IMG/VR virus record: IMGVR_UViG_3300017788_002882
Location: 37,717-101,716 of that record
Length of the DNA stretch: 64,000 nt
Direction: 5' to 3' (one strand)
Origin: a virus
The notes under the pieces are model-generated. The model worked only from the letters and a program-made list of their open reading frames with translations. It was not told the origin of the DNA and made no database searches. Positions 14,301 through 38,802 of this stretch are shown here, one piece after another (the stretch's first letter is position 1; each line of letters starts with the position of its first letter). The position numbers and the translations under genes were made by a program.

Positions 14301-14480
14301 TGCACAAGAATTACGAATCCAAGTGTTTGTAACAGTTGCTGGAATAACCCTAACTACAAGTTTGATAAAGGAGATTGGAATTGGTGCCCAGTTCATAAAG
14401 GAACAACTCGCCAATTTGAATGTCACACATCAATAACATCTGAAATGGTGATAAATAAAATACAACACTTATTAAAATGA
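11388..14480 (+). CDS. Three-domain glycosyltransferase: GT-A-like, GT4-like, and TibC/Aah-like autotransporter heptosyltransferase domain
   Basis: YIDSDS in the N-terminal domain; PHLSTGGMP, KNQ and ECNPLVIREA in the middle; SLGDTVSW, FIGLSSGLSWL and VCNSCW...WCP.H.GT.RQFEC at the C-terminus. Confidence 0.8.
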   Translation: MKSFITHTTENYEHITLNLVKSINKYSDYKIIVYTIDYDGSETLKKETECIRLDLNLPNLDDSSFVSDLNGNLYVNRGQLRTYLTLGAKIDVMLSASSIVDEWIYIDSDSIVNTNIDELFYYCEKITDFPLASLGPQQYVLIVDSDGKVRGNPYWKENGTIDNENTLEWPLMRFMGMNPNQRSDYRTTNLIVGNFKTKEFLRTWKELKDFLPKFVSLKTIVPYHEETLYNVLTWKINPNHEGLPISYINVDSSSTLNHFFSFESKKLTRLGAFYTIPENKNEIKIFHGEKRQSEIDKMFEIIDSQKKIRVLFLSPHLSTGGMPSYLLKRIESLISLYSDVEIYVAEFCEYSTLYTVQRDRIKQLIPENRFWTINTLSNHTVENSMKVIDIIKENQIDVVHIDEMVEGFDSFNKMPNELKNALYTDDRTWRVVETCHNIWFDPNTSKSFHPDAYAFCTPYHKEVSFKNMPSRKEVFEFPIENRFRTREEQVRCLETLGLDTLKVHVLNVGLWTSGKNQKEGLEIARHFQNYNVEFHFVGNQASNFESYWGPLMNDLPSNVKVWGERSDVETFMKASDVLMFNSTWECNPLVIREAASFGLKIIARDLPQYVGMFKGLICPLENDILSNVHLLKRLISSTRNYKVLDGMTSEFAKKHYDLYKSIITQSPTKNVKKNSNVKIKKYFITQPFLEIIGESDSEFEVKFFDEKGICHYKNKIKSNHWVRLNRQYFTKWNTKIYENGLLIYDKTLNYSDKRVFINFDSKSLGDTVSWIPYALEFKKAHNCDVVVSTFWNHLFKEVYPELEFVQPGTVVHNIFGQYNLGWFWDESKEPELPNTIPLQKAASNILGLPFSEIKPRIHYKIGERPYSEKYITIATNSTAGCKFWTKEGWQQLINYLNSIGYKVVNVSKENNPFDNCVKLQDTSIENTINVIHHSEFFIGLSSGLSWLSWGIGKHVVMISNFTEADHEFTSNCTRITNPSVCNSCWNNPNYKFDKGDWNWCPVHKGTTRQFECHTSITSEMVINKIQHLLK

Positions 14481-15148
14481 ACTTAGACCAATTTGTATGG
14501 GAACCAAAATGTTATAATGGATTCCGCGAAACCGTAGAACAAGAAATTTTTATTGATAAAATTTATGAAAGACATGTTCGAGTTGAAGAAGGTGATGTAG
14601 TTTTTGACATTGGAGCAAGTTTGGGGCCATTCACATTTTCTATATTAGATAAATCCCCGTCACAAGTTTTTGCTTTCGAACCAAGTTACGAAGAATTCAA
14701 AACATTGGTCCTTAACACAAGACATGGGAACGTAACTCATATCAATAAGGGCATTAGTAACATTGTAGGAGAATTTAATTTTACAGACGTATTCGATTTG
14801 ACAGGGAATCACAAACTATATTCAACATCATTTAAAAAAGTTATTGAAGATTATGGAATCAAAAAAATTGATTTTTTGAAAACGGATTGTGAAAGTGGTG
14901 AGTATGAGATTTTCACTTTAGATAATTTGTTTTGGATTAAAAACAACGTAAAAAAAATATCAGGTGAGTGGCACTTGAGAACTCCTGAACTTAAGGAAAA
15001 ATTTAAGATTTTTAGAGATGTTTACCTACGATTTTTCCCAAACTTCAAAATATTTTCTTTCGATGGAGTTGATATTACTTGGTCAATTTGGAATGAGGAT
15101 TTTATTCCGTACTATAATGAAGTTATGATATACATTGATAATAGATAA
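14477..15148 (+). CDS. FkbM-family methyltransferase
   Basis: VFDIGASLG, AFEP and IDFLKTDCESGEY motifs. Confidence 0.85.
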   Translation: MNLDQFVWEPKCYNGFRETVEQEIFIDKIYERHVRVEEGDVVFDIGASLGPFTFSILDKSPSQVFAFEPSYEEFKTLVLNTRHGNVTHINKGISNIVGEFNFTDVFDLTGNHKLYSTSFKKVIEDYGIKKIDFLKTDCESGEYEIFTLDNLFWIKNNVKKISGEWHLRTPELKEKFKIFRDVYLRFFPNFKIFSFDGVDITWSIWNEDFIPYYNEVMIYIDNR

Positions 15149-15196: not shown

Positions 15197-17935
15197 ATGA
15201 AAGGAACAGTATTCTCAGCCGATTTTGTCAAAGACTCTAACGGAAACTTAAGATTATTAGAACTGAACACGGATACAGGGTTTATAGATCAGGAATTAGT
15301 AAATTTTGATTTCAATGGATTCTTGACTGTATTGTCTTCTAATAACATCACAACATTAGACATTATTTATAAACCATTTTTGCACATTGATTTTGTTAAT
15401 AAATTGATAGAAGAGGTGAATAATACCTTACCACTTATTTCAATCACCTTACATGATGAAAACATTAATTCAATCTATCCGACATCAGTTCCTGATGCCG
15501 CAGATAAATTTGTGTTGAGATTAGCTTACGACGAAACTGCAATATTTGATAGTGTTTACTGTAAAAATAGATTGAATGTTTATAATTTGTTCACTGAAGG
15601 TTCAATTACAGACAACTGTGTTGGTTATTACCATTCTTCATCTTTGGGAACTTTTGACACCTTAACAAAAGAGGTAAATGCCTCTAATATACCAGATGCC
15701 GCGATAAAAGACATTTACGAATCATTCAATCCAATTGATTTTTACAAAATAAATGTTGACAATGGAACAGTTGAAGAAAATTGGGATAATTTTATTCAAG
15801 ATAAATCTGCAGAAGATATTCTGATTGAACAATACCATTTTCATTCGTCAACTCTCGATGAGAATAACCACGTTACGTCTATCAGATTTTTTGCAATAGT
15901 ATATGGCCCTAATTTAGACATTCTTCCTTTACATAGTTACAAAATAAGTTCAATATTCGAACTACCCACTTCGATTGATTTGGAAGAAAACTCAAATAAA
16001 GTGAAAGATTATCATTTTTATGAATTTGCAACTAATATGTTCAAAAAAGATTCTGCTGGAATCTTATCTTCACACGAAGTTTTAATGGGGGACCAAACTT
16101 GGGAAGAAATATCCGAGATTCAGGTTGGAGATAGTATTCAATCTTATTTAATTAGTGGTTCACCACAAAGTGAATCTGATTTAAATTCTTTGAGTTGGAA
16201 CTATGAAGGTGACGAATTTCCTGAAGGGTCTTATCTAACAACCTCCAATGTAGTATTCAAAGATGTTGCCAATTTAAAATATAATTCTATGATGGAAATG
16301 GTAATAGATAGTGATTCATTATTTTCAGGCATTAATAAAAAATATTTAGTCTATGATAGTTTAACTAATAAAAGTAGTTATAAATTTATCTCAGAAATCA
16401 ATGCAATTACAGACTACCTTTATGACATAAATGGACAACTAATTCAAGTTGATGAACTAAATTTTTATGTATCTTCAGAAAATGGGTTGTCGTTTGTAGA
16501 ACTTGATGTTGAAGATTCGGACACTTATATTATAAATGGATCTACAGCGTTTCATAGTGTAGTTTCTCATAACGCTCCTTGTTTTGTAGCAGGAACTCCG
16601 ATTTTGATGGCAGATGGAAGTCAGTTGAACATTGAAGATGTAAAAATTGGTGACAAAATTTTATCATTCGATTTTAAAAATAATGATTCAAAAATTGGAC
16701 AAGTGCTCAATATATTTTCAAGAAAGGTTAATAAAATTGTCGAATATGAATTTTCTAATGGTGGAATACTCAAATCTACATTGGACCATCCATTATATGC
16801 TTTAGACAAAGGATGGTCATCATATTCTGAAACCTTATCAAATAATTTGTACAGTTTAGAAGAGTCTGTTAAAAAAATTGAAGTCGGTGATACTATAAAG
16901 TTTTACGATAGTACTTCAACTATTACTCAAATGCAAGTTTTTGATGGAGATTTTACGGTTTACAACTTATCAGAAATCGAAAAATACCATAATTACTACG
17001 CTAATAATGTCTTAGTCCATAATCGATTTTGTTTTGTAAAAGGTACAATGATTGAAATGGCAGATGGGACATCAAAAAAAATTGAAGATGTTAAAATAGA
17101 TGATTTAGTAATTTCTTTTAATGAAGAAACAAAAACTAAGGAATCTCAAAAAGTTACAAAAATAGTTTCCCCAATTCACAACGATTTAGTAATTTATCAT
17201 TTCGAAAACGGTAAAAATATTACTTGTACATTTGACCATCCATTCTATGTAAATGGTTTAGAACTAGCTTCATATAAACCTTCTTTGACAAACGACAGAT
17301 ATAAACTTGGTGTCGATGTTTCCCAAATAAAAATCGGTGATGTTGTCAACTTAATTGATGATACGTTTACTACAATAACTTCATTCGAGGAATTAGAAAA
17401 GTCTCAGACTGAAACTTTTATATTTGAAGTAGAAAATAATCATAATTTTTATGCAAACGGTATTCTTACTCACAACAAATTCTGTTTCATAGCAGGAACA
17501 AAAATTTTGTTAGAAGACGATATCGAAAAAAACATAGAAGAAATACAAATCGGTGATGTAGTTTTATCATATAACGAAGAAAAAAAAACCATCGAACCCA
17601 AAAAGGTTACAAACACTTCTTCACCAATACATGATGATTTAGTAGAATATACTTTATCGAATGGGATTAAAATAACTTCAACTTTTGACCACCCGTATTA
17701 TGTTAATGGTTTGGAACTTGCGTCTTACAAACCAGAGTGGACCAATGAAAGATACATTTTACCTTCCAATGTGATTGAAATTAGAGTTGGAGATTTTGTA
17801 AATCTGTCTGACAATGAAACTGTAAAAATTGAATCTATAATGGAATTAAGTCGAATTAACACTCGGACGTATATCATTTCTGTGGAAGACAATCACAATT
17901 TTTACGCAAATAAAATTTTAGTACATAACAAATAA
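15197..17935 (+). CDS. Circularly permuted ATP-grasp-like domain fused to four tandem Hint (intein-like/BIL) domains
   Basis: N-terminal SADFVKDSNGNLRLLELNTDT resembles the D-F...LLE-x-N-x-D-T motif of glutathionylspermidine-synthetase-type ATP-grasps. Hint domains: G288-N459 (degenerate), C462-N609, C612-N760 and C763-N911. Hint 2-4 have CFxxGT starts and TxDHP; all four end in HN. Confidence 0.8.
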   Translation: MKGTVFSADFVKDSNGNLRLLELNTDTGFIDQELVNFDFNGFLTVLSSNNITTLDIIYKPFLHIDFVNKLIEEVNNTLPLISITLHDENINSIYPTSVPDAADKFVLRLAYDETAIFDSVYCKNRLNVYNLFTEGSITDNCVGYYHSSSLGTFDTLTKEVNASNIPDAAIKDIYESFNPIDFYKINVDNGTVEENWDNFIQDKSAEDILIEQYHFHSSTLDENNHVTSIRFFAIVYGPNLDILPLHSYKISSIFELPTSIDLEENSNKVKDYHFYEFATNMFKKDSAGILSSHEVLMGDQTWEEISEIQVGDSIQSYLISGSPQSESDLNSLSWNYEGDEFPEGSYLTTSNVVFKDVANLKYNSMMEMVIDSDSLFSGINKKYLVYDSLTNKSSYKFISEINAITDYLYDINGQLIQVDELNFYVSSENGLSFVELDVEDSDTYIINGSTAFHSVVSHNAPCFVAGTPILMADGSQLNIEDVKIGDKILSFDFKNNDSKIGQVLNIFSRKVNKIVEYEFSNGGILKSTLDHPLYALDKGWSSYSETLSNNLYSLEESVKKIEVGDTIKFYDSTSTITQMQVFDGDFTVYNLSEIEKYHNYYANNVLVHNRFCFVKGTMIEMADGTSKKIEDVKIDDLVISFNEETKTKESQKVTKIVSPIHNDLVIYHFENGKNITCTFDHPFYVNGLELASYKPSLTNDRYKLGVDVSQIKIGDVVNLIDDTFTTITSFEELEKSQTETFIFEVENNHNFYANGILTHNKFCFIAGTKILLEDDIEKNIEEIQIGDVVLSYNEEKKTIEPKKVTNTSSPIHDDLVEYTLSNGIKITSTFDHPYYVNGLELASYKPEWTNERYILPSNVIEIRVGDFVNLSDNETVKIESIMELSRINTRTYIISVEDNHNFYANKILVHNK

Positions 17936-17938
17936 ACT

Positions 17939-18091
17939 ATGGATATTACAAAACACCCAAATCTATATAAAAAGAAACCACTAAGCGAAGTAAAGAATAG
18001 AACAACTTCATATTTGTCTAATACTGAAAAAGCTAGATTAGACAGTGTAATCAACAAGTTTTTTGAATTATTCATCGCTAAACATTTGTAA
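17939..18091 (+). CDS. 50-aa Lys-rich peptide (MDITKHPNLYKKKPLSEVKNRTTSYLSNTEKARLDSVINKFFELFIAKHL)
   Basis: Manual translation; fills the gap exactly, starting 3 nt after the Hint gene stop and overlapping the next gene as TAATG. Confidence 0.7.
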   Translation: MDITKHPNLYKKKPLSEVKNRTTSYLSNTEKARLDSVINKFFELFIAKHL

Positions 18092-18546
18092 TGGATGCAT
18101 ACAATTACATAAAAAATCATGTTTTTGTAAAACTTAAACCAAGCAAAATTTCGGGTGTAGGAGTCTTTGCGATTAAGGAAATTCCAATGGATACAGAATT
18201 GTTTCATGTGTGGGAAGGTAAAACTGGATTCTATCCCATTTCACAGACCGAATTGAATGATTTGGATTCTGATTTACAAAATCACATTCATGATTTATTT
18301 TTATTATCTACTCAATTTCCATTAGACACTAATATCTATGTTAAGTTGACTAAAGGTTGTCATTGGATTTACACAAATCCATACTATTTTGTTAATAGTG
18401 GGTTTTATACTAAAAATGCAAACATTGATAAAGAAAGTATGAAATCAATCGAACATATTAGGAAAGGTGAAGAACTTTTGAGTAATTACCAAAGACATGA
18501 AAAAATAGATACACAATTTTATGGTTCAGTTAATAAAATTATCTGA
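18091..18546 (+). CDS. SET-domain methyltransferase
   Basis: PSKISGVGVFAIKEI, FVNSG and IRKGEELLSNY motifs. Confidence 0.8.
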   Translation: MDAYNYIKNHVFVKLKPSKISGVGVFAIKEIPMDTELFHVWEGKTGFYPISQTELNDLDSDLQNHIHDLFLLSTQFPLDTNIYVKLTKGCHWIYTNPYYFVNSGFYTKNANIDKESMKSIEHIRKGEELLSNYQRHEKIDTQFYGSVNKII

Positions 18547-19120
18547 TAAATTCACAATTTACAAATCTCACGACGAGAATTTTTCTAATATCAAAAACGA
18601 TTGCATCAAATATGTGAAATTAAATGATTCATTAGTTATTCACCCAACTCCACAAAATAAAAACAATTCAATTTGGGTAGAAATAAAATCTGAATGTTTT
18701 TTAACCATTAACAACTTAATCAAAAGTCATGTGGAAAAAATTTCTGGTGAAAAATTTAAAAATTACGCTGAACATTTTTGGATATATACCCAAACTAAAG
18801 GGTTTAATTTAGAATGGATGCATCAACATCTATTAGTTCATCCACCTGGAGTATCATTTATTAAAACAGATTATACTTTCACATACTATTTTCAAACCCC
18901 AACTGATATAAGTGGAGATGAGGGTCACATAGTATTTGAAACTGAGGATGGTGTAAGACATAAGTTTTTACCTGAAGAGGGAGATTTTTTTATTTTTCCA
19001 GCAGACATACGACATACTGCAATACCGACTCCTAACTCTGAGATAGATAGAATCGTTTACGCAGGAAACCTATGTTTAAACATTGAAAATCAACGAGAAA
19101 TTGGGACAACTTTAATTTAA
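18521..19120 (+). CDS. Putative 2OG-Fe(II) oxygenase (TIGR02466-like)
   Basis: HQH, TFTYYFQTP, EGDFFIFPADIRH and RIVYAGN motifs. Confidence 0.75.
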   Translation: MVQLIKLSDKFTIYKSHDENFSNIKNDCIKYVKLNDSLVIHPTPQNKNNSIWVEIKSECFLTINNLIKSHVEKISGEKFKNYAEHFWIYTQTKGFNLEWMHQHLLVHPPGVSFIKTDYTFTYYFQTPTDISGDEGHIVFETEDGVRHKFLPEEGDFFIFPADIRHTAIPTPNSEIDRIVYAGNLCLNIENQREIGTTLI

Positions 19121-19128
19121 TAAAAATC

Positions 19129-19602
19129 ATGACACCATTTGAATATATAAAAAACTATGTAGTGAGTGCACTAAAGCCAAGTCGTATTCACGGAGTTGGA
19201 TTTTTTGCAATCAGAGATATTGAAATTGGTGAATCAATATTTAATCCTTGGTTTGGTGAAAGTGGGATATATTCTATCGACCACGATGAATTATTTCAAT
19301 TACCAACGGAATTACAAAAAACAATGTTAGAAACTTTTGACAATAAAATATTCTATATTAACAAAGAAAACCAAGAACAATACATAGAAAAAGAGTATGG
19401 TAAAATTTTCTTCCCATTAGAAAAAGGGTTTCATTGGATTTATATTTGGCCGAAAACTTTTATTAATAGTGGATTAAATAACGCGAATGTCGATACAATT
19501 AATCATGTTAATCCAATTGCATTAAGAAAGATATACAGTGGCGAAGAACTATTAGCGAACTACGGCTCAGAATTTAAGACTACTCCGAAAAACTTTATAT
19601 AG
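19129..19602 (+). CDS. SET-domain methyltransferase (paralogue of 18091)
   Basis: PSRIHGVGFFAIRDI, FINSG and IYSGEELLANY motifs. Confidence 0.8.
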   Translation: MTPFEYIKNYVVSALKPSRIHGVGFFAIRDIEIGESIFNPWFGESGIYSIDHDELFQLPTELQKTMLETFDNKIFYINKENQEQYIEKEYGKIFFPLEKGFHWIYIWPKTFINSGLNNANVDTINHVNPIALRKIYSGEELLANYGSEFKTTPKNFI

Positions 19603-19619
19603 AAACCCCTATAAAAAAA

Positions 19620-20174
19620 ATGACACATAATGTAAAATACAATTGGGAGTTCAATAAAGAAGACATACTTCGAAAAGTCTATAAAAATAAATCCCTACTG
19701 AAACAACCAAATGGTAATACATCACAAAACACAGATGAATTAATGTTTTGTTGTAGAGAATTTGACTCCATCAAAAATTTTGTTGTTAATCAGTATTTTG
19801 AATTAAAAAAAACTCAACATGTAGATTATGCGGTCAGTATGTGGTCTTACATCCAAACAAAAGATTTGCCTCCATCGAATTATATATGGCACACACACTC
19901 AAAATTAGATGGAGGTAGAACCCAACTTAAAACTGATTACACATTTGTTTTCTATGTACAAATACCCCCAAATTTGGAGAATGGGGAAGGTGACTTATTG
20001 ATTAAAGATAAAAACAATCATATTCATAGGATTACACCAAAGGAGGGTGAAATCATTTTTTTCCCTGGATATTTATGGCATGTTCCAACACACACACCAA
20101 CATCTACTATTGATAGGGTTGTTATTGCGGGAAATATTTCTTCTGAATTTTTATTAAATACCGTTTTAATATAA
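19620..20174 (+). CDS. Putative 2OG-Fe(II) oxygenase (paralogue of 18521)
   Basis: WHTH, KTDYTFVFYVQIP, EGEIIFFPGYLWH and RVVIAGN motifs. Confidence 0.75.
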   Translation: MTHNVKYNWEFNKEDILRKVYKNKSLLKQPNGNTSQNTDELMFCCREFDSIKNFVVNQYFELKKTQHVDYAVSMWSYIQTKDLPPSNYIWHTHSKLDGGRTQLKTDYTFVFYVQIPPNLENGEGDLLIKDKNNHIHRITPKEGEIIFFPGYLWHVPTHTPTSTIDRVVIAGNISSEFLLNTVLI

Positions 20175-20179
20175 TAAAT

Positions 20180-20656
20180 ATGATCACTTACATACCCAAC
20201 TTCCTAAGTAATTATGAATGTGAATATTATATTAATTTGTTCAAATCAAATGATATAGAGTTTATGGAATGGATTCAAAAAAAAAATAGACTTGGTGATA
20301 ATGATGTACTAAAATTTTATTACACAGATATAACAGATAATAAATTTGAGACCGACAAGTTTCCCAATTATATTTTCAAAAAGTTAAGAATACAAATGGT
20401 GAACGAATCAATAGACCAATGTAAAGCTCCACATACTCATGTGAATCCATGGTCGTTTGTCATTTTCCTGAATGAAAATTTCATTGGGGGAGAATTAGTT
20501 TTCGATAATATCGAATATGAACCAAAAACAGGAGATATGGTTTATTTTTCTGGAGAAGAGAGGCACAAACTTAACAATTGTGTCGGTGATAGATATACTC
20601 TCATTGGAGGGATGCAAAATAATCCTTTAAACGTGAAAACAGGAAAATTAATTTGA
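20180..20656 (+). CDS. 2OG-Fe(II) oxygenase, prolyl-hydroxylase-like
   Basis: PNFLS..EC, HTH, FLNENFIGGEL, PKTGD, distal H and RY motifs. Confidence 0.75.
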   Translation: MITYIPNFLSNYECEYYINLFKSNDIEFMEWIQKKNRLGDNDVLKFYYTDITDNKFETDKFPNYIFKKLRIQMVNESIDQCKAPHTHVNPWSFVIFLNENFIGGELVFDNIEYEPKTGDMVYFSGEERHKLNNCVGDRYTLIGGMQNNPLNVKTGKLI

Positions 20657-20663
20657 ATGTGGA

Positions 20664-21110
20664 ATGATTGTTTATTATGAAAATTTTTTGAATTCATCAG
20701 AATGTGAGTACTTTACGAATTTATATAAAATAGAAAACGACCAGTATTGCGATGATGATATTTACAAATTTTATTTTATTAATTTAATAGGAAGAGAATT
20801 AATTACCGATAGGTTTTCAACCTTTATATTCAAGAAGTTTAGAGTTCAAATGCTCAACGAATCAATAAATCAGTCTACTATCCCACATCGGCACGTAAAT
20901 CCTTGGTCTTTCATTATTTTTCTTAACGATAATTTTACAGGAGGTGAAGTAATTTTTGACAAAATAAGCTATACCCCCAAAACAGGAGATATGATTTATT
21001 TTTCAGGTGAAGAAAACCACAAAGTCAATAATTGTATTGGAAATAGATATACCTTAGTTGGATTTATGCACAATAACCCAATGAATGTAAAAAAAAACAC
21101 TCTTATATGA
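20664..21110 (+). CDS. 2OG-Fe(II) oxygenase, tandem paralogue of 20180
   Basis: Near-identical core (HVNPWSF..FLN.NF.GGE..FD...Y.PKTGDM.YFSGEE.HK.NNC.G.RYTL). Confidence 0.75.
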   Translation: MIVYYENFLNSSECEYFTNLYKIENDQYCDDDIYKFYFINLIGRELITDRFSTFIFKKFRVQMLNESINQSTIPHRHVNPWSFIIFLNDNFTGGEVIFDKISYTPKTGDMIYFSGEENHKVNNCIGNRYTLVGFMHNNPMNVKKNTLI

Positions 21111-21931
21111 AAAAAAAACTTCTATTAACAATGGGATGTTCCTTCACAGAGGGAGTAGGATGTTATGACCCTGAAGTTGTCTCATACAAAGTTGGTGATA
21201 AAACAAAGTATAAAAAAACAGAAGAAGTTTATTACATTAGTAAAGAAAGATTTCACAAATATTCTTGGCCATCACATCTTCAAAAACAACTCAATTATGA
21301 TACTCTAATCAATTTAGGGTTTGGTGGGTCATCCACCTCAGGTAATGTAAAAGTTTGGTTCGAAAAATACTATAATAAAAATTTTTCTGACGAGTTTGAC
21401 GTTTTGGTTCTTTGGTTATTACCATCTCCAACTAGATTTTCATTCTACAGAGATTCCACACTGATGAATATAAACCCACTGATGGAAAAAAACATTTACA
21501 ATGTTCATAGTTACGAAATCGGAAAAGAATATTTAAAATTCATAAATGATTTAGATATGGACCCAATTCTTGAACAAATTTTTTATGTCAAAATTATGGA
21601 AGAACATTGTATTTCTAAGAAATACAAATTTCTGTATACTCCAATTGATTACCGTCAAAATACTTTTTTTGAAAAATTTCACAATATAAATAATATGATG
21701 AAATTTAATCAATCTATTTTCCCTAACTTCGAAGAAAACTCAAATATGAAATCACTTGTTTGTAGTCATCCAAATGAACTTGGTTATCAATATATCTCTA
21801 ATAATTTATATAATTGGATTAAAACAAATAATCCCGAAATTATTTCAGATAAAAAACCAAACAAATTTGAATCCAAATGGGATGGTTATCCAATTTTTAA
21901 CCATTCACGTGAAGTCAAAATACCTATCTAA
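21107..21931 (+). CDS. SGNH/GDSL-like hydrolase or acyltransferase
   Basis: GCSFTEG, NLGFGGSS and HPNELGY motifs. Confidence 0.7.
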   Translation: MKKKLLLTMGCSFTEGVGCYDPEVVSYKVGDKTKYKKTEEVYYISKERFHKYSWPSHLQKQLNYDTLINLGFGGSSTSGNVKVWFEKYYNKNFSDEFDVLVLWLLPSPTRFSFYRDSTLMNINPLMEKNIYNVHSYEIGKEYLKFINDLDMDPILEQIFYVKIMEEHCISKKYKFLYTPIDYRQNTFFEKFHNINNMMKFNQSIFPNFEENSNMKSLVCSHPNELGYQYISNNLYNWIKTNNPEIISDKKPNKFESKWDGYPIFNHSREVKIPI

Positions 21932-21967
21932 TAATGATAAAAAAAAAATTTTTGTTATTATATATCT

Positions 21968-23017
21968 ATGAACTCAGAGGTAGACTTAAAAAAATATTTT
22001 TGTACAGTACCATTCAAAAACTTGGAGATTCACACTAATGTCTGTTTTGCATGCTGTCCATCTTGGTTGCCAAACAAAATAGAAACCTCAGAAATTCCTT
22101 TGAAGGAAGTTTGGAATAGTACTCCAATGACTGACATTCGGGAATCAATAATTGATGGATCCTTCAAATACTGTGATAAAGAATTATGTCCTTATTTGAG
22201 TAAACTTATCAACTTTGGTGAAACATCTGGCCCCGTCCAATTGAAAACTGAATCTACACCTAAATCTCCATTTTTGAATGAAGGACCAAAAGTCTTGGTA
22301 ATGAATTTCGATAGGACTTGTAATTATAAATGTCCATCTTGTAGAGTAGATTTGATTGTAGAGGATAAAAAAGGAATACAACGAGTAGAAAAAACAATAG
22401 AGGAAATAGATTCCTTTTACTCCAAGGACGTTAAGACATTATATATAACAGGTTCAGGGGACCCATTTATATCCGTAGGTTTCAGAAACTACTTGCGTAA
22501 TTTTGACCCCAAGAAATATCCTAAACTGAAGTCGATTCATTTTCATACTAATGCATCGATGTGGAATAAAGAAATGTGGGATAGTATGCCAAATGTTCAC
22601 AAATACGTCAAAAGTTGTGAGATAAGTATAGATGCTGGGACAAAAGATACTTACGAAAACAAAACAAGATTAGGAGGAAAGTGGGATAATCTCATAGAAA
22701 ATTTAAATTTCATAAATACAATTCCGAGTTTGAAATATGTCAAAACATCATTTGTAGTACAAGATTCGAACTACAGGGAGATGGAATTATTCTACAATAT
22801 AATGTACTCAATTTTCGGAAAAAAAGTTGGGGTGTTCTTTGGAAAAATAACTAACTGGGGAACATTCGGTGAAGATGAATTTAAATCGAAACAAGTATGG
22901 GATAATTCGCATCCCGAACATGAATTATTCAAAGAAGAATTCAATAAAATTAGTAAGAACAAATATATGTTCCATAACTTACACGAATTTACAGATAAAA
23001 CCAAAACTTTGATATAA
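21968..23017 (+). CDS. Radical SAM protein with N-terminal Cys-rich (SPASM/twitch-like) region
   Basis: CNYKCPSC, GSGDPF and ISIDAG motifs; N-terminal C..PF...ACC...C...CP. Confidence 0.85.
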   Translation: MNSEVDLKKYFCTVPFKNLEIHTNVCFACCPSWLPNKIETSEIPLKEVWNSTPMTDIRESIIDGSFKYCDKELCPYLSKLINFGETSGPVQLKTESTPKSPFLNEGPKVLVMNFDRTCNYKCPSCRVDLIVEDKKGIQRVEKTIEEIDSFYSKDVKTLYITGSGDPFISVGFRNYLRNFDPKKYPKLKSIHFHTNASMWNKEMWDSMPNVHKYVKSCEISIDAGTKDTYENKTRLGGKWDNLIENLNFINTIPSLKYVKTSFVVQDSNYREMELFYNIMYSIFGKKVGVFFGKITNWGTFGEDEFKSKQVWDNSHPEHELFKEEFNKISKNKYMFHNLHEFTDKTKTLI

Positions 23018-23577
23018 TGAAAATATTGGTATTATCTCATACTAGAAGTGGTTCTACTACCTTATGTAAATGGATTTCGAGGGAGATGAAGATTGAGTTG
23101 GATGAAACTCCATATAATAAAAAAACTTTCTATTCAGTTTTTGATAAGAAAGATATAGTTAGAAAAATAGTCATTGAGGAATTCGCACCTCCGAACCATG
23201 TAATTCTTAAATTTGATAAAGTAATTTGTTTGACCCGTGATGATAGTGTTGAAACTGCGATAAGTTTCATCATGGCAAAAAAAACTGATAAATGGCATGT
23301 CGAATATGATATTACTAATGATTGGATTATTGAAAATAAAAATGAAATAATACGGAGGAAAAATTGGTATGATAGTATGAAATCAGTCCTAAAAAAATAT
23401 GATGTACTACAATTAAAATATGAAAACATTTATATCAATAAAACAGAATTGAAATTATTAACTGACTACCTGAATATTACAAGCCCCCAACATTTACATT
23501 TACTTGATTACACTAAAAAATATAGAAAAGATAGATTCCAATTGATTCATGATTTTGAAAGAAAAGATATTATTTAG
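23017..23577 (+). CDS. Sulfotransferase-like P-loop protein (Stf0-like)
   Basis: SHTRSGSTTL 5'-PSB loop, LTR...AIS 3'-PB motif and YE. Confidence 0.7.
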   Translation: MKILVLSHTRSGSTTLCKWISREMKIELDETPYNKKTFYSVFDKKDIVRKIVIEEFAPPNHVILKFDKVICLTRDDSVETAISFIMAKKTDKWHVEYDITNDWIIENKNEIIRRKNWYDSMKSVLKKYDVLQLKYENIYINKTELKLLTDYLNITSPQHLHLLDYTKKYRKDRFQLIHDFERKDII

Positions 23578-24046
23578 TGCGAAGGAATGCCAATCCATAA
23601 TTTGGGACGAAACCAAAAATATAAATAATCATTCCTATGTAAGTGATAGAAGATACAACTCACAGCCAATAAAGTATGATGAAAATACTAAATGGATATT
23701 CGAAAAACTTTCCGAGTTTTTCCAAGAAGAAACTAAGTTGAAAATCACTGCGATCAAAAATAAAATCCACTTTCATAAATTCGTTGCAGGAGATTGGTTT
23801 GGAAAACATAATGACGCAATTGACAACAGAGTTTATGCGGTTGGGGTTCTATTGAATGAAAATTTTGAGGGGGGTGACTTCAAGTTGTATAACCCCAACG
23901 AATATACATTGAATAAAACCGTTGGCAACGCTTACATATTTGAAGTAAATATAGACCATGAAATCACACCAATTTTAAGTGGAGAAAGATATTCTTTGTT
24001 ATGGTTTTTACAGAAAGATAATTTGATTACAAAAACAATAATTTAA
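23549..24046 (+). CDS. 2OG-Fe(II) oxygenase, prolyl-4-hydroxylase-like
   Basis: HND, LNENFEGGDF and HEITPILSGERYSL motifs. Confidence 0.85.
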   Translation: MILKEKILFSAKECQSIIWDETKNINNHSYVSDRRYNSQPIKYDENTKWIFEKLSEFFQEETKLKITAIKNKIHFHKFVAGDWFGKHNDAIDNRVYAVGVLLNENFEGGDFKLYNPNEYTLNKTVGNAYIFEVNIDHEITPILSGERYSLLWFLQKDNLITKTII

Positions 24047-25213
24047 ATGGAAATAGATTTTTGGTTTACAGATATATTCAAAGGGTCAGGTATTCAAGAA
24101 ATGCTCGAAAAAATAGACAGAAATATTTCATTCAAAAATGTTGATACAGACGTAATTGATTCAAATAAATTGAACCTATTAGTTTTTGTTTGGGAAACAA
24201 GTCCAAAACTTCCATACACAACATACACTACTTCGGATGAATTTATAGATTTACTCAAAAAACTTCAGGATAAAAAGTTTTACTTTATGGCAGATTTTTC
24301 AAGAGAAGCCCACAACAGAGTAGATGAACTTAGTTTATCTTTTTTGAATAAATTGAAATCCAACGGAATAGACATCAACCGATTGGTTCTTGTTAAAAAT
24401 GACTCCTTGAAAATCGGTTTACACAAAATGAAATATGAGAATTTCACATTAAATACATTTTTCTTTCCCCACTTTTTCTTATCAACATATAACCATCTCA
24501 AACAATATATTAACCCCGAAAACGAAAGAACAAAAATAGAACCAGATAAAAAATTTCTGTGTTTAAATCGGAGGGTATTTTATCACAAGTATCAAATTAT
24601 TGAAGAGTTGTTCAAAAGAGGTTTATTGGATGAAACACGGCTAACTTGGGTAGACAATTATACCCCTCTCAAAATGATCGATTTAGATTTGGCACATAAA
24701 CTAAAATTAAATGGTCTCGAGTTCAAATCCATACAATTAGAAGGCGATGTTATGTACGGTAGTAGACTATCATATCACGACGAATTCTTATTTACAATTA
24801 ATCCAGATTGGTATTATAATAGTAAAGTAGATATAATTACTGAAACCATGTTATATGACGAGGCGATACATATCACCGAGAAAACTTACAAATCAATTTA
24901 TTTAGGATTACCGTTTGTTGTATCCGCAACCAAAGGACATCTAAAACACCTACGAGACATGGGGTTCAAAACGTTCAATTCAATCATAAATGAGGATTAT
25001 GATGAAATGAATGGTAAAAATAAAGTGAAACACGTTATAGATGCTGCTATAGAATTATCGAACGTATATGATAATCCTGAAGTGATAGAAATTTGTAAGT
25101 TCAACAGAGAACTCTATTTCGATTCTGAATTTCGGAAGAAAATTTGTAAAAAATTTTTTTTGGATAAATTACATGAAATCAAAGATAAATCACACCCTAA
25201 CTCATTAATCTAA
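24047..25213 (+). CDS. GT10-like (putative GT-B) protein, phage paralogue family
   Basis: KKFLCLNR, IITET, ITEKTYK, PF and GFKTF...I.E.YD motifs shared with 5 paralogues. Confidence 0.5.
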   Translation: MEIDFWFTDIFKGSGIQEMLEKIDRNISFKNVDTDVIDSNKLNLLVFVWETSPKLPYTTYTTSDEFIDLLKKLQDKKFYFMADFSREAHNRVDELSLSFLNKLKSNGIDINRLVLVKNDSLKIGLHKMKYENFTLNTFFFPHFFLSTYNHLKQYINPENERTKIEPDKKFLCLNRRVFYHKYQIIEELFKRGLLDETRLTWVDNYTPLKMIDLDLAHKLKLNGLEFKSIQLEGDVMYGSRLSYHDEFLFTINPDWYYNSKVDIITETMLYDEAIHITEKTYKSIYLGLPFVVSATKGHLKHLRDMGFKTFNSIINEDYDEMNGKNKVKHVIDAAIELSNVYDNPEVIEICKFNRELYFDSEFRKKICKKFFLDKLHEIKDKSHPNSLI

Positions 25214-25217
25214 ATTT

Positions 25218-26030
25218 ATGGAATCATTAAAATACTGGTCTCCCAATGATTTTGAAATTTCATCATTAAGATATAAACTTAATGGTCAAAAAAGAGTTAA
25301 AGAGTTCAGAACTCCAACAAGCACTGAAACTAAATCCTGTACCTATACCTATAATGATTTAGGATATAGAGGAGACTCAATGCATAAAAATGGCTTTCGT
25401 ATTATGTCAATTGGATGTTCATTGACTGAAGGAGTTGGTATTAATGATGATGAAACATGGCCTAATCAATTTACGAAAATGGTTACTAATGGTGTGGATT
25501 TAAACTTTGGTTGTGGAGGAAGGAGTAATGATTATATTAGTAGGTGTTTATTAAGTTATTATGATTTAATTAAACCCGATTTAGTTTTAATCATGTACAC
25601 TTCTTTGGAAAGACGGGAAGTGTGGACTAAAAGTAATGGTGTGAAACCATTTATGCCCCCTTGTTGGGGCTATTTGCGAGACTCTGATGAAGGAAGAAAC
25701 ACCTGTAATAATTTGGTTGATTTACAAAACGATAATTCTGATTTCATAAATTGGTATAAAAATCATTTGTTAATAAAATTATTCTTGGAATCGAAAAAAT
25801 GTAATTGGATTTGGAATGGTTCGTTTGGAGTTCATAAAGAGTTCAAGGAATATAATAGATTTGACGGAGATTATATGAGTGATTCATTTATTGACTTAGC
25901 ATCTGATGAGTCCCATCCAGGCTCAAAACATAATAAAGAATACGTTATTAAATTATTCAATCATTTGAAACAAAACTTTCCGAATTATTTATCGAATGAT
26001 TACCATTCTATTAACCAAAAATTATTTTGA
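25218..26030 (+). CDS. SGNH-like protein
   Basis: YTYNDLGYRGD, GCSLTEGVG, GGRSND and DESHPG motifs. Confidence 0.7.
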   Translation: MESLKYWSPNDFEISSLRYKLNGQKRVKEFRTPTSTETKSCTYTYNDLGYRGDSMHKNGFRIMSIGCSLTEGVGINDDETWPNQFTKMVTNGVDLNFGCGGRSNDYISRCLLSYYDLIKPDLVLIMYTSLERREVWTKSNGVKPFMPPCWGYLRDSDEGRNTCNNLVDLQNDNSDFINWYKNHLLIKLFLESKKCNWIWNGSFGVHKEFKEYNRFDGDYMSDSFIDLASDESHPGSKHNKEYVIKLFNHLKQNFPNYLSNDYHSINQKLF

Positions 26031-26821
26031 AAATGAAATCACTTCAATTTTGGAAACCTGAGACATTCGAAATTTCTTCATACAAATATCACCTTGACGG
26101 TAGGAAAAATAAATCCTTTAGTACATCAGGAAGTGATAATACAGGATTGTGTACATATACATATAATGAATTAGGATTTAGGGGAGATTCAATCAATAAA
26201 TCTGGATTCAAAGTAATGTCAATCGGGTGTTCATTAACCGAAGGAGTCGGTGTAAATGACGATGAAACTTGGCCTTACCAATTTACCCAACTCATACCCG
26301 ACAGTGTGAATCTAAATTTTGGGTGTGGTGGTAGGAGTAATGATTATATACTGAGATGCTTAGTCACCCACTATGATTTAATTAATCCTGATTTGGTATT
26401 AATAATGTATACCTCTCCTCAGAGAAGAGAAATATATACAGATAATGGTGGGATTGAACCATTTATCCCAACATTATCTTGGGGTTATATGGATGAAACT
26501 GAAAGAGGAAGAGAAATCCAAAACTGCTTAATAGAATTACAGAATGAAAATGAAGATTTTATCAATTGGTATAAAAATCACATAACCATAAAATTATTTT
26601 TGGAATCAAAAAATTGTAATTGGTTATGGAATGGATCATTCGGTATACCTAAAAAATATTCGGAATTTAATAGGTTTGATGGTGATTATATGAATGAACC
26701 ATTTTTGGATTTGAGTGTTGAAGGTTTACATCCAGGTCCACTTCATAATAAACTTTATGCGGAAAATTTGATGAATCACATGAAAATCAATTTTCCTGAT
26801 TATTTATCGAGTACTTCATGA
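26027..26821 (+). CDS. SGNH-like protein (paralogue of 25218; likely start ATG 26033)
   Basis: GCSLTEGVG, GGRSND and EGLHPG motifs. Confidence 0.7.
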   Translation: MKMKSLQFWKPETFEISSYKYHLDGRKNKSFSTSGSDNTGLCTYTYNELGFRGDSINKSGFKVMSIGCSLTEGVGVNDDETWPYQFTQLIPDSVNLNFGCGGRSNDYILRCLVTHYDLINPDLVLIMYTSPQRREIYTDNGGIEPFIPTLSWGYMDETERGREIQNCLIELQNENEDFINWYKNHITIKLFLESKNCNWLWNGSFGIPKKYSEFNRFDGDYMNEPFLDLSVEGLHPGPLHNKLYAENLMNHMKINFPDYLSSTS

Positions 26822-27429
26822 AAAGAACAAAAATGGTGATTGGATTACACACTTCTATGGAATTCTTGGAAGAAACGAAAGATGATAAATCATTAACGGT
26901 TTTTGCATTTGAACCCAACAAAGATATAGTATCCAAAATTTATAACGAATTTGAAATCCCACCAAATTATGTGATAATCGACAAAGCAGTATCAAATATT
27001 GATGGTAAAGTACCTTTTTATATTTGTTCATTGGATTCATGTTCAAGTTTGATGAATTGGGGTAATGGCCCAAAGTTAGGTGAAATGAGAGAAGTTGAGG
27101 TTGAATGTATAAGAATGGACAATTTTATAATAGATAATGAAATTGAAAATATCGAATTTATAATAATTGATACACAAGGGAATGACCTTAACGTCCTGTA
27201 CGGTTTTGGAGAAAAATTTCAAATAGTAGAAAAAGGAACATGCGAGAGTCTTTCCGAAGAGACAAATTGGAAACTTTATGAAAATCAACCATCATTCTCA
27301 GACTTTGCAAAATTTTTCAAAAAAAACAATTACACAATATCATGGGATTGGAATTGGGGGGGAGCAATTCAATTCAACGAAATAAACATCGAATTTGAAA
27401 AATTAAAAAAACTAAATAAGTTAATATAA
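26818..27429 (+). CDS. FkbM-family methyltransferase
   Basis: FAFEPN, AVSN, SSL and IDTQGNDL motifs. Confidence 0.75.
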   Translation: MKRTKMVIGLHTSMEFLEETKDDKSLTVFAFEPNKDIVSKIYNEFEIPPNYVIIDKAVSNIDGKVPFYICSLDSCSSLMNWGNGPKLGEMREVEVECIRMDNFIIDNEIENIEFIIIDTQGNDLNVLYGFGEKFQIVEKGTCESLSEETNWKLYENQPSFSDFAKFFKKNNYTISWDWNWGGAIQFNEINIEFEKLKKLNKLI

Positions 27430-27431
27430 TT

Positions 27432-28226
27432 ATGAACGCTTTGAAATTTTGGTCTCCGAACAATTTCGAATTTTCTTCCTTAAGAAGTTTACTTACGAGG
27501 AAAAAAGTTAAACTTGGAACAGACAACACAGGATTATGCACTTACTCCTATAATGAGCTTGGATTCAGGAGTGATTCAATCTACAGTAAAGGATTCAAAA
27601 TCATGTCAATAGGTTGTTCAAACACTGAAGGAATAGGTGTGAATGATAATCAAACTTGGCCTCATCAATTTTCTAGATTGATTTCCAATGGAATAGATTT
27701 AAATTTCGGTGCATCGGGTCGAAGTAACGATTATATTTCAAGATGTTTGTTAAGTTATTATGACTTGATAAAACCTGATTTAATTTTGATAATGTACACT
27801 TCACCTCGAAGACGCGAGGTATATACAAAAAATTCAGGAGTGAAACCTTTTCTATATGAAGATTCTTGGGGATTTTTGCGTGAAACCGAAGAAGGTAAAA
27901 TGATTCAAAATAATTTACTTCTATTACAAAATGACAATGAAGATTTTATGAATTGGTATAAAAATCATTTATTGATTAAATTATTTTTGGAATCGAAAAA
28001 AAGTAATTGGATATGGAATGGTTGGTTTAATATACCTTCTGAATATTTGGAATTTAATCGATTTGATGGATTATACGGAAAGTTTGTTGATTACGGTGCT
28101 GATGGAGGCCATCCTGGCCCCCAACACAATAAAATCTACGCAGAAACCTTACTCAAACACATAGAAAGTAACTTCCCGAATTATTTGCCAACTGAAAACC
28201 AAACTTATGAAAGTAAGTTAATTTAA
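27432..28226 (+). CDS. SGNH-like protein (paralogue of 25218)
   Basis: GCSNTEGIG, SGRSND and DGGHPG motifs. Confidence 0.7.
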   Translation: MNALKFWSPNNFEFSSLRSLLTRKKVKLGTDNTGLCTYSYNELGFRSDSIYSKGFKIMSIGCSNTEGIGVNDNQTWPHQFSRLISNGIDLNFGASGRSNDYISRCLLSYYDLIKPDLILIMYTSPRRREVYTKNSGVKPFLYEDSWGFLRETEEGKMIQNNLLLLQNDNEDFMNWYKNHLLIKLFLESKKSNWIWNGWFNIPSEYLEFNRFDGLYGKFVDYGADGGHPGPQHNKIYAETLLKHIESNFPNYLPTENQTYESKLI

Positions 28227-37635: not shown

Positions 37636-38802
37636 TTAAGCATTTTCATATATCTCTCTGAAAATATTTGCCGTCAAACTCCAATTATAATCAATTCCAA
37701 ATGCATCACAATATCCGATATCAAAATCTTTAAGTATAATTCTGTAGGTTTCTTTATTTTCTTTTATCAATAATTTTAATTTTTCGGGAATAAACAAATC
37801 GTTATAAACGATATTGGTTAGTGTAATCACGTTAGACCAAGCAATACTTCCAACAGAATCTTTTACTTCATTGTAATTTTTATCTCTAATCCCAATTAAG
37901 TTATCTATAATACCTAAACACCTTAATTTCATAGAATCGGTGTTATCGAAATCATAGTTGAATATTGGGCCATATAAACCTAATCCATATTTTGACAAAT
38001 TTTTATTTTGCCCTTTGTTACCCAATATTAAAAAAGGGTTTCCTAATAAAACCCCTCGGAATGTTTTTTCAGTATGAAAAATAAATTCATTTGGTTTGTC
38101 ATCAATACCGAATGATTCCAAACGTGGTGCGGTTTCGGTTACAACATCGATTAAATTGTTTACGTTTAGTAACTCATATGAATAAACTTTATGAGGTTTG
38201 TTATAGTCCCGACTTTCTTCAAGAGTTAATTTTCTTTCCTTAAAATATTCATAGGGCCAATTATCTTGAACATGTGCCCACGTATTAACCCCATAATCGA
38301 ATAATCCAAATTTACATAAATAATCCATAAACTCGGCTCGGTGACTTCTTACATGATTATTCAAATTCAAGTAGAGTTTTTTTATTATCTTGTTTGGATT
38401 GTATAATTCCATTGGGGTCTTCCCATAATTTTCAATCAAGGCATAGAAAGTGTAATGTAATAGTGCGGTAGGCCAAAAAAGTACTTCGAAATTTTTGATT
38501 GGGTTTGTATTCAGATTCGAGTAAGCCTCACTGAAATCACAACCGACAAGAAGGAAGCACCTTATATCGTATTTTGTTAAAATATTTTCAAAATTACTCA
38601 CATCTTCCAAATGACTCGGGTTAGAAATATAATCATGCCTCAAGTAATCATGAAACCTGTTATCCGATTCTTCCCATGGTTGCCAAATTATTACATGGTT
38701 ACTCGGTTTTATTTTTTCTATAACATGAGTAATATCTGAGAGATTTTTGGATAAATTCGGGAAAATGATGAGTACATCTTTTATAAACTTATATGAAACC
38801 AT
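37636..38802 (-). CDS. GT10-like paralogue
   Basis: LYLNLNN..R.HR, VVTET, HTEKTFR and PFLILG motifs. Confidence 0.5.
   Translation of the reverse strand: MVSYKFIKDVLIIFPNLSKNLSDITHVIEKIKPSNHVIIWQPWEESDNRFHDYLRHDYISNPSHLEDVSNFENILTKYDIRCFLLVGCDFSEAYSNLNTNPIKNFEVLFWPTALLHYTFYALIENYGKTPMELYNPNKIIKKLYLNLNNHVRSHRAEFMDYLCKFGLFDYGVNTWAHVQDNWPYEYFKERKLTLEESRDYNKPHKVYSYELLNVNNLIDVVTETAPRLESFGIDDKPNEFIFHTEKTFRGVLLGNPFLILGNKGQNKNLSKYGLGLYGPIFNYDFDNTDSMKLRCLGIIDNLIGIRDKNYNEVKDSVGSIAWSNVITLTNIVYNDLFIPEKLKLLIKENKETYRIILKDFDIGYCDAFGIDYNWSLTANIFREIYENA

Follow-up and report, generated by a model that had tools for sequence, protein, structure and literature searches.

A jumbo-phage ATP-grasp-like ligase fused to a degenerate Hint and three tandem bacterial intein-like domains: a possible self-maturing enzyme

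Why should a viral protein that resembles an amide ligase carry a head-to-tail row of intein-like domains at its end, with two residues from one to the next? The question is raised by an open reading frame (ORF) at positions 15197-17935 of the window, by which is meant the whole stretch of 64,000 nucleotides analysed here (positions 37,717 to 101,716 of the IMG/VR virus record IMGVR_UViG_3300017788_002882). An initial annotation, made from the letters alone, had described the product as an ATP-grasp-like ligase followed by four Hint domains, and had proposed that the array releases the dipeptides lying between the Hints as its products. We lean, with restrained confidence, towards another answer: the gene would encode a self-maturing, two-piece ATP-grasp amide ligase whose array of BIL (bacterial intein-like) domains removes itself. 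The dipeptides would then be linkers.

A ligase-like head, four Hint folds and a small partner

The head of the protein was recognized through its predicted fold. Residues 1-459 were folded with AlphaFold2 (AF2) from a family alignment of 87 relatives (A1), which gave a mean predicted local distance difference test score (pLDDT) of 94.1 and a predicted template modelling score (pTM) of 0.88. In VIA structure comparisons, residues 1-280 match 5oeu (Z 10.4, 214 residues, root-mean-square deviation (rmsd) 4.5), E. coli YgiC (7uka; Z 9.6, 202 aa, model residues 1-279 on residues 94-377 of the chain) and GspS (2io7; Z 9.3, 208 aa). Matches of the GS/GspS/YgiC kind lie overall at Z 8-10.4, the best of them with 200-226 residues aligned, and the classical ATP-grasps RimK, LysX/ArgX and TTLL lie at Z 5.4-6.6, with their residues 1-215 on model residues 50-281. 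Foldseek returns YjfC (7uk6) at E 3e-5 and YgiC at about 5e-5, and the language-model neighbours of the head are ATP-grasp and GshA clusters. No graspetide ligase of the microviridin MdnB/C kind is among the structural matches listed, and no precursor peptide was identified. YgiC and YjfC are peptide-spermidine ligases (Pederick 2023, as cited in PMC12568646).

The motif evidence agrees with the fold. An N-terminal hairpin (strands 2-12 and 18-24) bears D9, E22 and N24; D9 and E22 are invariant in alignments A1, A3 and A5, as is N24 in A1 and A3, whereas in A5 its conservation is at least 90%. The spacing of these residues, 13 and 2, is the classical one for the Mg ligands of ATP-grasps, and they form a putative Mg site. 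K59, R108, D118, K171 and R230 are further invariant in the alignment of the N-domain (A3), and the Lys and Arg residues among them are candidates for binding phosphate. Sequence comparisons were silent: residues 1-288 and 288-460 match no Pfam or PHROGs family at E values up to 10, a Pfam search of ten homologues lacking detectable Hints gave as its sole match a sub-threshold GSP_synth (E 0.11), and a PDB profile search with the N-domain alignment gave no useful match. The "ATP-grasp-like ligase" of the initial annotation is hence supported, by predicted structure and by the D9-E22-N24 motif only. A longer ATP-grasp domain reaching upstream was considered and rejected, since the start MKGT... 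is the N-terminus kept in every relative, all of which begin at the same Met, and the upstream ORF, in another frame, encodes an FkbM methyltransferase.

Fused to the head is a domain that the initial annotation had called Hint 1 (G288-N459), with Gly in place of Cys1, no TxxH and a retained His-Asn. Fold and profile comparison both uphold this description. We call the domain psi-Hint. Against the canonical Hints of the family, hhalign gives a probability of 90% (E 1.5e-6), and the AF2 fold superposes on two solved BILs, 2lwy of C. thermocellum (Z 19.8, 138 residues at rmsd 1.5) and 6tmm, BIL2 of Tetrahymena BUBL (Z 18.9). Gly288 stands at the Cys1 position and DSDS at the TxxH position, and H458-N459 is kept; by eye, the block-F His-Asn is apparently missing as well. 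G288 is invariant in the full-length alignment A5. In A1, N459 is invariant and H458 at least 90% conserved, the members without detectable Hints included. With these residues the psi-Hint could at most cut downstream of itself, and its competence for cleavage is doubtful.

Three canonical Hints follow. On re-reading of the sequence the junctions SHN-AP-CFVAGT, VHN-RF-CFVKGT, THN-KF-CFIAGT and VHN-K-stop were all confirmed, coordinates included, and the protein indeed contains four Hint folds, three of them BIL-type with a full catalytic set behind a degenerate first. Hints 2-4 each have Cys1, TxDH and the terminal His-Asn, and none has Cys, Ser or Thr at +1 (C462/TLDH, C612/TFDH and C763/TFDH, with junctions HN-R, HN-K and HN-K). 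The Pfam models Intein_splicing (3.4e-24), Hint (4.1e-19) and PT-HINT (3.3e-14) each match three stretches, and in a PDB profile search the closest solved relatives by sequence are BUBL BIL2 (6tmm, E 1e-24) and the C. thermocellum BIL (2lwy, 2e-22). Judged by their motifs, the three are A-type BILs, with Cys1, TxxH, His-Asn and no +1 Cys, Ser or Thr. A classical (class 1) intein would look otherwise: here +1 is R, K and K, the canonical Hints contain no homing endonuclease, and the site is a variable C-terminal tail that holds 0-3 Hints. An arrangement of the BUBL type is likewise absent, as only 2, 2, 2 and 1 residues stand between or after the Hints and Pfam finds no ubiquitin-like family.

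A separate observation concerns the wider relationships of these domains. The Pfam model AXH (the ataxin-1/HBP1 module) outscores every intein model on the window's Hints, at 3.2e-35, and the family's Hint profile matches AXH structures of the ataxin-1/HBP1 set (4j2j at 1e-7; 1v06 at 1e-3) over the first two thirds. This similarity suggests that AXH is related to the N-terminal part of BIL-type Hints.

In an AF2 model of the full-length protein (mean pLDDT 83, pTM 0.52), ten-residue blocks of the Hints mostly lie at pLDDT 72-96 and those in loops and junctions at 58-70, while residues 449-460, 609-614 and 760-764, at the junctions, fall below 50. Confident domains joined by such junctions indicate that the array resembles beads on a string.

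A gene for a 50-residue protein lies immediately behind the Hint gene and in the window overlaps the start of the next gene. It is found in 78 of 80 loci, usually 0-32 nt downstream, and is missing only from L079 and L085, two loci whose ligase lacks detectable Hints. In the alignment of this small family (A4), two positions, Y10 and H49, do not vary, and its members end in K-H-[LSTM]; no Pfam family matches it. A model of the complex between core and partner reached an ipSAE of 0.88, against 0.02 for the best control. This mark was reached by 58 of 80 solved complexes and by 2 of 110 mismatched pairs, counts that are only rough here, as custom alignments were used. The partner has pLDDT of at least 87, and the runs agree in at least 92% of contacts. 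Its strand 9-14 pairs with psi-Hint residues 420-428, and helix 33-50 of the partner rests against residues 8, 10, 17-20 and 23 of the core and against helices 116-141; the face contacted by the helix is the side of the hairpin opposite D9, E22 and N24. The model supports binding of the partner to the ligase core, and the partner is predicted to be a second subunit of the ligase and not its substrate.

Table 1. The Hint gene, its domains and linkers, and the genes that follow it, in window coordinates
Feature	Position	Strand	Content or basis
Whole ORF, 912 aa, 103.8 kDa precursor	15197..17935	+	ATP-grasp, degenerate Hint, three BIL-type Hints, terminal Lys, stop
ATP-grasp-like ligase domain (GS/GspS/YgiC kind), residues 1-285	15197..16051	+	AF2 fold, structure matches, invariant residues
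Psi-Hint (degenerate Hint), residues 288-459	16058..16573	+	hhalign and AF2 structure matches
Ala-Pro linker, psi-Hint to first BIL	16574..16579	+	sequence
BIL-a, residues 462-609, 16.8 kDa; Cys462, TLDH, H608-N609	16580..17023	+	Pfam, PDB profile search
Arg-Phe linker	17024..17029	+	sequence
BIL-b (middle Hint), residues 612-760, 17.0 kDa; Cys612, TFDH, H759-N760	17030..17476	+	Pfam
Lys-Phe linker	17477..17482	+	sequence
BIL-c, residues 763-911, 17.2 kDa; Cys763, TFDH, H910-N911	17483..17929	+	Pfam
Single terminal Lys (one-residue C-extein) behind the last Asn	17930..17932	+	sequence
50-aa partner gene, 3 nt past the stop of the Hint gene	17939..18091	+	conserved neighbour; predicted second subunit of the ligase core
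Co-directional tailoring-enzyme module (SET, small 2-oxoglutarate (2OG) oxygenase, radical S-adenosylmethionine (SAM), sulfotransferase)	18091..28226	+	neighbourhood clustering, 81 loci

Variable linkers, exchanged Hints and a tagged-enzyme module in aquatic phages

The array varies widely among relatives, and the variation bears directly on whether the dipeptides could be products. An exhaustive HMMER search gave 265 cluster representatives at 50% identity, of which 102 scored below 1e-30; relatives are encoded at 184 IMG/VR loci. Among 286 full-length members, no canonical Hint was detected in 33, one in 116, two in 107 and three in 30, so that 253 (about 88%) have at least one detected Hint bearing all catalytic residues. 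The linker between core and first Hint in these 253 measures 0 aa in 30, 1 in 8, 2 in 156 and 3-13 in 39, and could not be delimited in 20; where it has two residues it reads AP in 96 and SP in 48 (together 144 of the 253). Linkers between Hints are 1-11 aa long, apart from two of 29-30 aa. Three-Hint relatives that are 58-93% identical have RF, RT, RA, RV or R alone at one position and KF, KA, KS or KT at the other, and the relative at 93% identity already has RT in place of RF, with the Arg kept. Linkers and tail keep two things, the residue directly behind each Asn and one Lys at the very end. Because length and sequence both vary, AP, RF and KF are read as linkers and not as products, and the dipeptides as defined products of the array were not borne out. 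The initial annotation had named homologues with random-length linkers and decayed catalytic residues as an outcome that would speak against its proposal. The linkers do vary; no decay was seen, since the canonical Hints of the family retain Cys1 in 419 of 420, TxxH in 415 of 420 and His-Asn in 409 of 409.

Behind the terminal Asn, +1 is Lys in 223 and Arg in 162 of 409 Hints (385 basic, 94%), with Thr in no more than 2. In some relatives the last Hint is of the Vint type and lacks His-Asn. In members with a short tail (22-39 aa or fewer past the last His-Asn), the tail is exactly K in 149 of 188. When all linkers of a protein are summed, the median is 7, 8 and 7 aa for members with one, two and three Hints, and the sum ends in Lys in 32 of 54, 82 of 88 and 26 of 28, respectively, and in 21 of 31 members in which no Hint was detected.

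The position after the Asn shows one more regularity. In 404 of 409 Hints the residue there is one of six (K, R, F, Y, L, W), and these six are the destabilising N-terminal residues of the bacterial Leu/N-degron pathway. Cleavage at the C-terminus of a Hint would bare an N-degron on the downstream part, which is kept here as an idea only.

The Hint-less members have endings of their own. Short tails or Cys-rich tails of about 30-190 aa come straight after the psi-Hint His-Asn, the Cys-rich ones being seen in P0245, P0252, P0259, P0253, P0239 and P0256, and these are possible candidates for released mini-proteins. In P0251 (647 aa), Hints are absent and the C-terminus is a Peptidase_S74 domain, the self-cleaving intramolecular chaperone of phage tailspikes, so that this core bears self-removing modules of two kinds.

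Hint number has changed repeatedly: at least 37 changes are counted on a tree of 169 non-redundant cores, a figure that leans high as some of the one-Hint entries are truncated proteins. A tree of the Hints themselves shows positional orthology within the window's clade for the first Hint (95% support) and for the last (97%), and BIL-c groups with the last Hint of two-Hint relatives (97% support), whereas the middle Hint has independent origins across lineages; the window's second Hint and that of the relative P0019 are only 40% identical. In addition, Hints 80-89% identical occur in proteins whose cores are 25-46% identical, and in 95 pairs Hint identity exceeds core identity by more than 30 points. 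Slow evolution of the Hints alone is insufficient to explain this pattern, because in the closest of these pairs for which DNA was available the share of identical codons among identical amino acids is also higher in the Hint than in the core (84 vs 65%, 74 vs 60% and 66 vs 55%). The codon pattern indicates that Hint DNA has been exchanged among these phages. A search of cultured phage records for near-identical DNA or protein found no relative of the whole protein and gave only Hint-level matches within helicase and terminase genes; similarly, the BFVD library of viral folds returned Hint-level matches only and no full-length look-alike.

The source record is a 101.7-kb fragment that CheckV places at 33% completeness. 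A jumbo myophage was preferred as its origin to a giant eukaryotic virus, which was considered and rejected: relatives with complete genomes (245-326 kb) contain Terminase_6N and a tail sheath, and the NCLDV capsid was not found, nor were T4 gp23 and Terminase_6C, in the record or in the complete relatives. A PHROGs search of the large ORFs in the rest of the record was uninformative. Nearly all members of the family come from jumbo myophages of aquatic origin. A search of 185,579 species genomes met a single relative, L099 (CAYNGR010000277.1), on a 2.8-kb high-coverage contig binned with a metagenome-assembled genome of Cyanobium. This contig is probably phage DNA, and it gives a weak hint of a picocyanobacterial host.

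Neighbourhood clustering over 81 loci places the Hint gene at the head of a conserved co-directional module. Small 2OG oxygenases resembling prolyl 4-hydroxylase belong to it, with 178 copies in 76 loci, as do radical SAM enzymes, a Stf0-type sulfotransferase, SET proteins, other 2OG enzymes, adenosine 5'-phosphosulfate (APS) kinase, DUF6734 and a carbamoyltransferase. The module enzymes share a C-terminal tag. In eight families, among them small 2OG, radical SAM, sulfotransferase, SET, DUF6734 and two without a recognized function, 78-100% of members end in K-x-[LI]-[IL] at the free carboxyl terminus, as against 0-8% in thirteen other neighbouring families and 2% of the Hint proteins. Tagged families occupy window positions 18091-28226 (+) and include minus-strand genes up to about 59518, and they recur in loci L015-L094; 28.6% of the ORFs in these loci end in Ile, compared with 8.5% Ile among residues overall. 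A promoter and terminator scan around the Hint gene scored at or below chance.

Other features of the surroundings were recorded alongside. The small 2OG-FeII_Oxy_3 oxygenases (148-165 aa) occur as several paralogues per locus, in the window at 20180-20656, 20664-21110 and 23549-24046 (+), and their alignment (A2) has PH-x-H-x-NP where the HxD/E of the facial triad is expected. Directly upstream of the Hint gene (11388-15148, +) are genes for a 1030-aa protein with GT4 and GT9 (heptosyltransferase-like) domains and for the FkbM methyltransferase; a carbamoyltransferase, a C-methyltransferase and several radical SAM genes lie further on. Together these genes are a large island for glycan or protein decoration.

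Maturation of the ligase and alternative explanations

Precedents for the reactions of such Hints are at hand. BIL domains cleave at their N- and C-termini, and ligation is possible even where a side-chain nucleophile is missing (PMC7664689; PMC7765530); BIL2 of Tetrahymena BUBL forms a Lys isopeptide, by which the N-extein is conjugated to lysines of other proteins (PMC8616854). The following scheme is modelled on them. The head would have the fold of enzymes that join the C-terminal carboxylate of a peptide to an amine; it would be welded to the psi-Hint, and behind it a short, Lys-ended tail would be interrupted by three intact BILs. By analogy, each BIL would turn the bond before its Cys1 (P461-C462, F611-C612, F762-C763) into a thioester, and its terminal Asn (N609, N760, N911) would cyclise and break the bond to R610, K761 and K912. 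As no Cys, Ser or Thr stands behind the Asn, the thioester would be resolved by water, which is plain cleavage, or by an amine. Such an amine could be the alpha-amine that Asn cyclisation sets free or, as in BUBL BIL2, a Lys epsilon-amine, here that at +1. The Lys or Arg conserved at +1, like the C-extein of one Lys, agrees with an amine-resolved reaction and falls short of proving it. Each of the three Hints would come free at about 17 kDa; the core would remain at about 52 kDa, whether bare or bearing a Lys-ended tail of about 7 residues, and AP, RF and KF would be the linkers left between self-removing modules. The mature core, held by the 50-aa partner, would act within the adjacent module of C-terminally tagged tailoring enzymes. 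The array may serve as a switch that times or activates the ligase, may provide a set of thioester handles, or may consist of passengers. Cleavage, its order and any rejoining of flanks are what we infer from the conserved residues and from the BIL precedent; that the summed linkers come to about 7-8 aa whatever the Hint number is a weak sign that flanks may be rejoined, by aminolysis, into APRFKFK, a side option of the initial annotation.

Several observations weigh against this account of self-maturation. The case for autoprocessing is read from conserved residues, and the ATP-grasp assignment comes from structure and motif, with no match at the level of sequence. Pro occupies the -1 position of the first BIL, as it does in 167 of 420 Hints, and Pro at -1 of an intein is unfavourable for the N-S acyl shift. 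The near-constant length of the summed tail is weak evidence, being confounded by relatedness, and it fails in some sister pairs, such as P0019 and P0059 with 6 vs 12 aa. Besides, a tail that can be spared should readily shed a self-removing module; that the type of the terminal Hint is nonetheless extremely conserved suggests a role for the Hints beyond their own departure. For the near-universal basic residue at +1 and the lone Lys at the end, the scheme has no more than a tentative explanation.

Other uses of the same parts can be imagined. The original proposal, that the array frees AP, RF, KF and K as thioester-activated dipeptides or diketopiperazines for the ATP-grasp domain, draws on the intact His-Asn and intact Cys1 that flank every linker and on the nearest folds, which belong to enzymes acting on small peptides, namely GS, GspS and the peptide-spermidine ligases YgiC/YjfC (PMC12568646). 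It now appears very improbable: neither length nor sequence of the linkers is kept (the first is 0 aa in 30 members, others are 1-13, two are 29-30), RF has become RT in the 93%-identical relative and is cut to R in others that are close, no canonical Hint was detected in 33 members, and a 104-kDa protein molecule would be spent on three dipeptides at most. Alternatively, the linkers might matter jointly, as a peptide precursor on a self-cleaving carrier, in the manner of ribosomally synthesised and post-translationally modified peptides: the BILs would rejoin them into APRFKFK, and Asn459 of the psi-Hint would release or present the peptide to the tailoring enzymes and the ATP-grasp domain. 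The invariance of N459 and near-invariance of H458 even in Hint-less members, the short or Cys-rich endings of those members past His-Asn, the Lys-ended summed tail of about 7-8 aa and the conserved tailoring-enzyme neighbourhood would all suit it. We nevertheless regard it as distinctly unlikely, given that hardly anything of the tail sequence is kept apart from the residue opening each linker and the Lys at the end, that a psi-Hint lacking Cys1, TxxH and apparently the block-F His-Asn is of doubtful competence, and that virion proteins, or glycans with genes nearby, could just as well be what the tailoring enzymes decorate.

A fairly unlikely use, though one with a precedent, is that the BIL thioesters pass their upstream segments, independently of ATP, to lysines or other amines of target proteins. 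The segments would be the core with AP at its end, BIL-a with RF and BIL-b with KF; the partner, the tagged enzymes or virion proteins might receive them. The closest solved relative, BUBL BIL2 (E 1e-24), does conjugate its N-extein to the lysines of other proteins (PMC8616854); Lys is at +1 in 223 of 409 Hints, a conserved Lys stands at -4 in the tag of the module enzymes, and the final Vint/Hog-type Hint of some relatives is limited to the N-terminal reaction. On the other hand, the array has no ubiquitin-like or other cargo between its Hints, no target was identified, Arg, a poor nucleophile, is at +1 in 162 of 409, and Hint-less members sit in the same kind of module (L079, L085). It is less likely again that the canonical Hints are mobile insertions of a selfish or neutral kind, passengers that recombination carries from one co-infecting jumbo phage to another and that remove themselves without benefit to the phage. 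The record of at least 37 changes in number, the independent origins of the middle Hint, the 95 pairs in which Hint identity lies more than 30 points above that of the core and the lower synonymous divergence in the closest pairs are what such elements would leave. They would, however, be insertions without a homing endonuclease, placed in a tail and not in a conserved active site, where imprecise deletion goes unpunished; yet about 88% of members (253 of 286) keep an intact Hint.

Core, partner, self-removing BIL array and tagged enzymes could be parts of one undescribed phage machine for covalent conjugation of proteins or peptides, a speculative possibility to which we assign a low but appreciable probability. 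The Hint thioesters, independent of ATP, and/or the ATP-grasp domain, acting on C-terminal carboxylates, would attach the Lys-ended tail or the ligase itself to tagged enzymes or virion proteins, and this would be a virus-encoded tagging free of E1 and E2.

Significance and comparison with known systems

BIL-type Hints and ATP-grasp ligases are individually well known. A full-text literature search found no description of a BIL/ATP-grasp fusion or of a degenerate Hint welded to a ligase, none of head-to-tail BIL arrays with spacers of 0-2 residues, and none of the coupled 50-aa subunit or the tagged-enzyme module. The family is abundant, with its 265 clusters and 184 IMG/VR loci, and it always lies beside the same set of tagged tailoring enzymes. 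If the Hints are a maturation switch or thioester handles, they would represent a new viral route to control or deploy a ligase, and a natural example of multi-intein-like processing that could be of use in protein engineering. The attractive idea of a dipeptide factory has at the same time been shown to be unlikely.

Among ligases, the head is most readily compared with YgiC, YjfC, GspS and GS (7uka, 7uk6, 2io7, 5oeu), on which residues 1-280 superpose with Z 9.3-10.4. As in this permuted GS/GspS/YgiC branch, the acidic hairpin D-x12-E-x-N comes early in the chain. The first 90 residues or so of YgiC have no counterpart here, and sequence similarity is undetectable. It further differs from GS, GspS and YgiC in being fused to a Hint fold and in the separate 50-aa protein that is predicted to sit on the back of the hairpin.

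The Hints have their nearest counterparts in A-type BILs, for instance that of C. thermocellum (2lwy; Amitai 2003, Dassa 2004 and Aranko 2013, as cited in PMC7664689 and PMC7765530). Both have the same fold of about 140-150 aa and the same motifs, lack a +1 Cys, Ser or Thr and a homing endonuclease, and lie in a variable region of a non-conserved protein. In the phage, three such Hints stand head to tail, 1-2 residues apart, behind a degenerate fourth, at the C-terminus of an ATP-grasp enzyme; a basic residue, Lys or Arg, nearly always takes the +1 place, and one Lys stands behind the last copy. Hedgehog/Hog and Vint proteins likewise have C-terminal Hints that process the protein they end. 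The window's Hints differ from these in keeping His-Asn, so that cuts would be possible at both ends, and in having no sterol-recognition region. The BUBL locus too repeats BILs within one polyprotein (BIL2, 6tmm/6y75; Dassa 2004 and Chiarini 2021, as described in PMC8616854), and the thioester is resolved there by a lysine amine with no need of ATP. In BUBL the BILs alternate with the ubiquitin-like cargo that is transferred; the phage array has no cargo, belongs to a bacteriophage, and is fused to what is predicted to be an ATP-dependent ligase.

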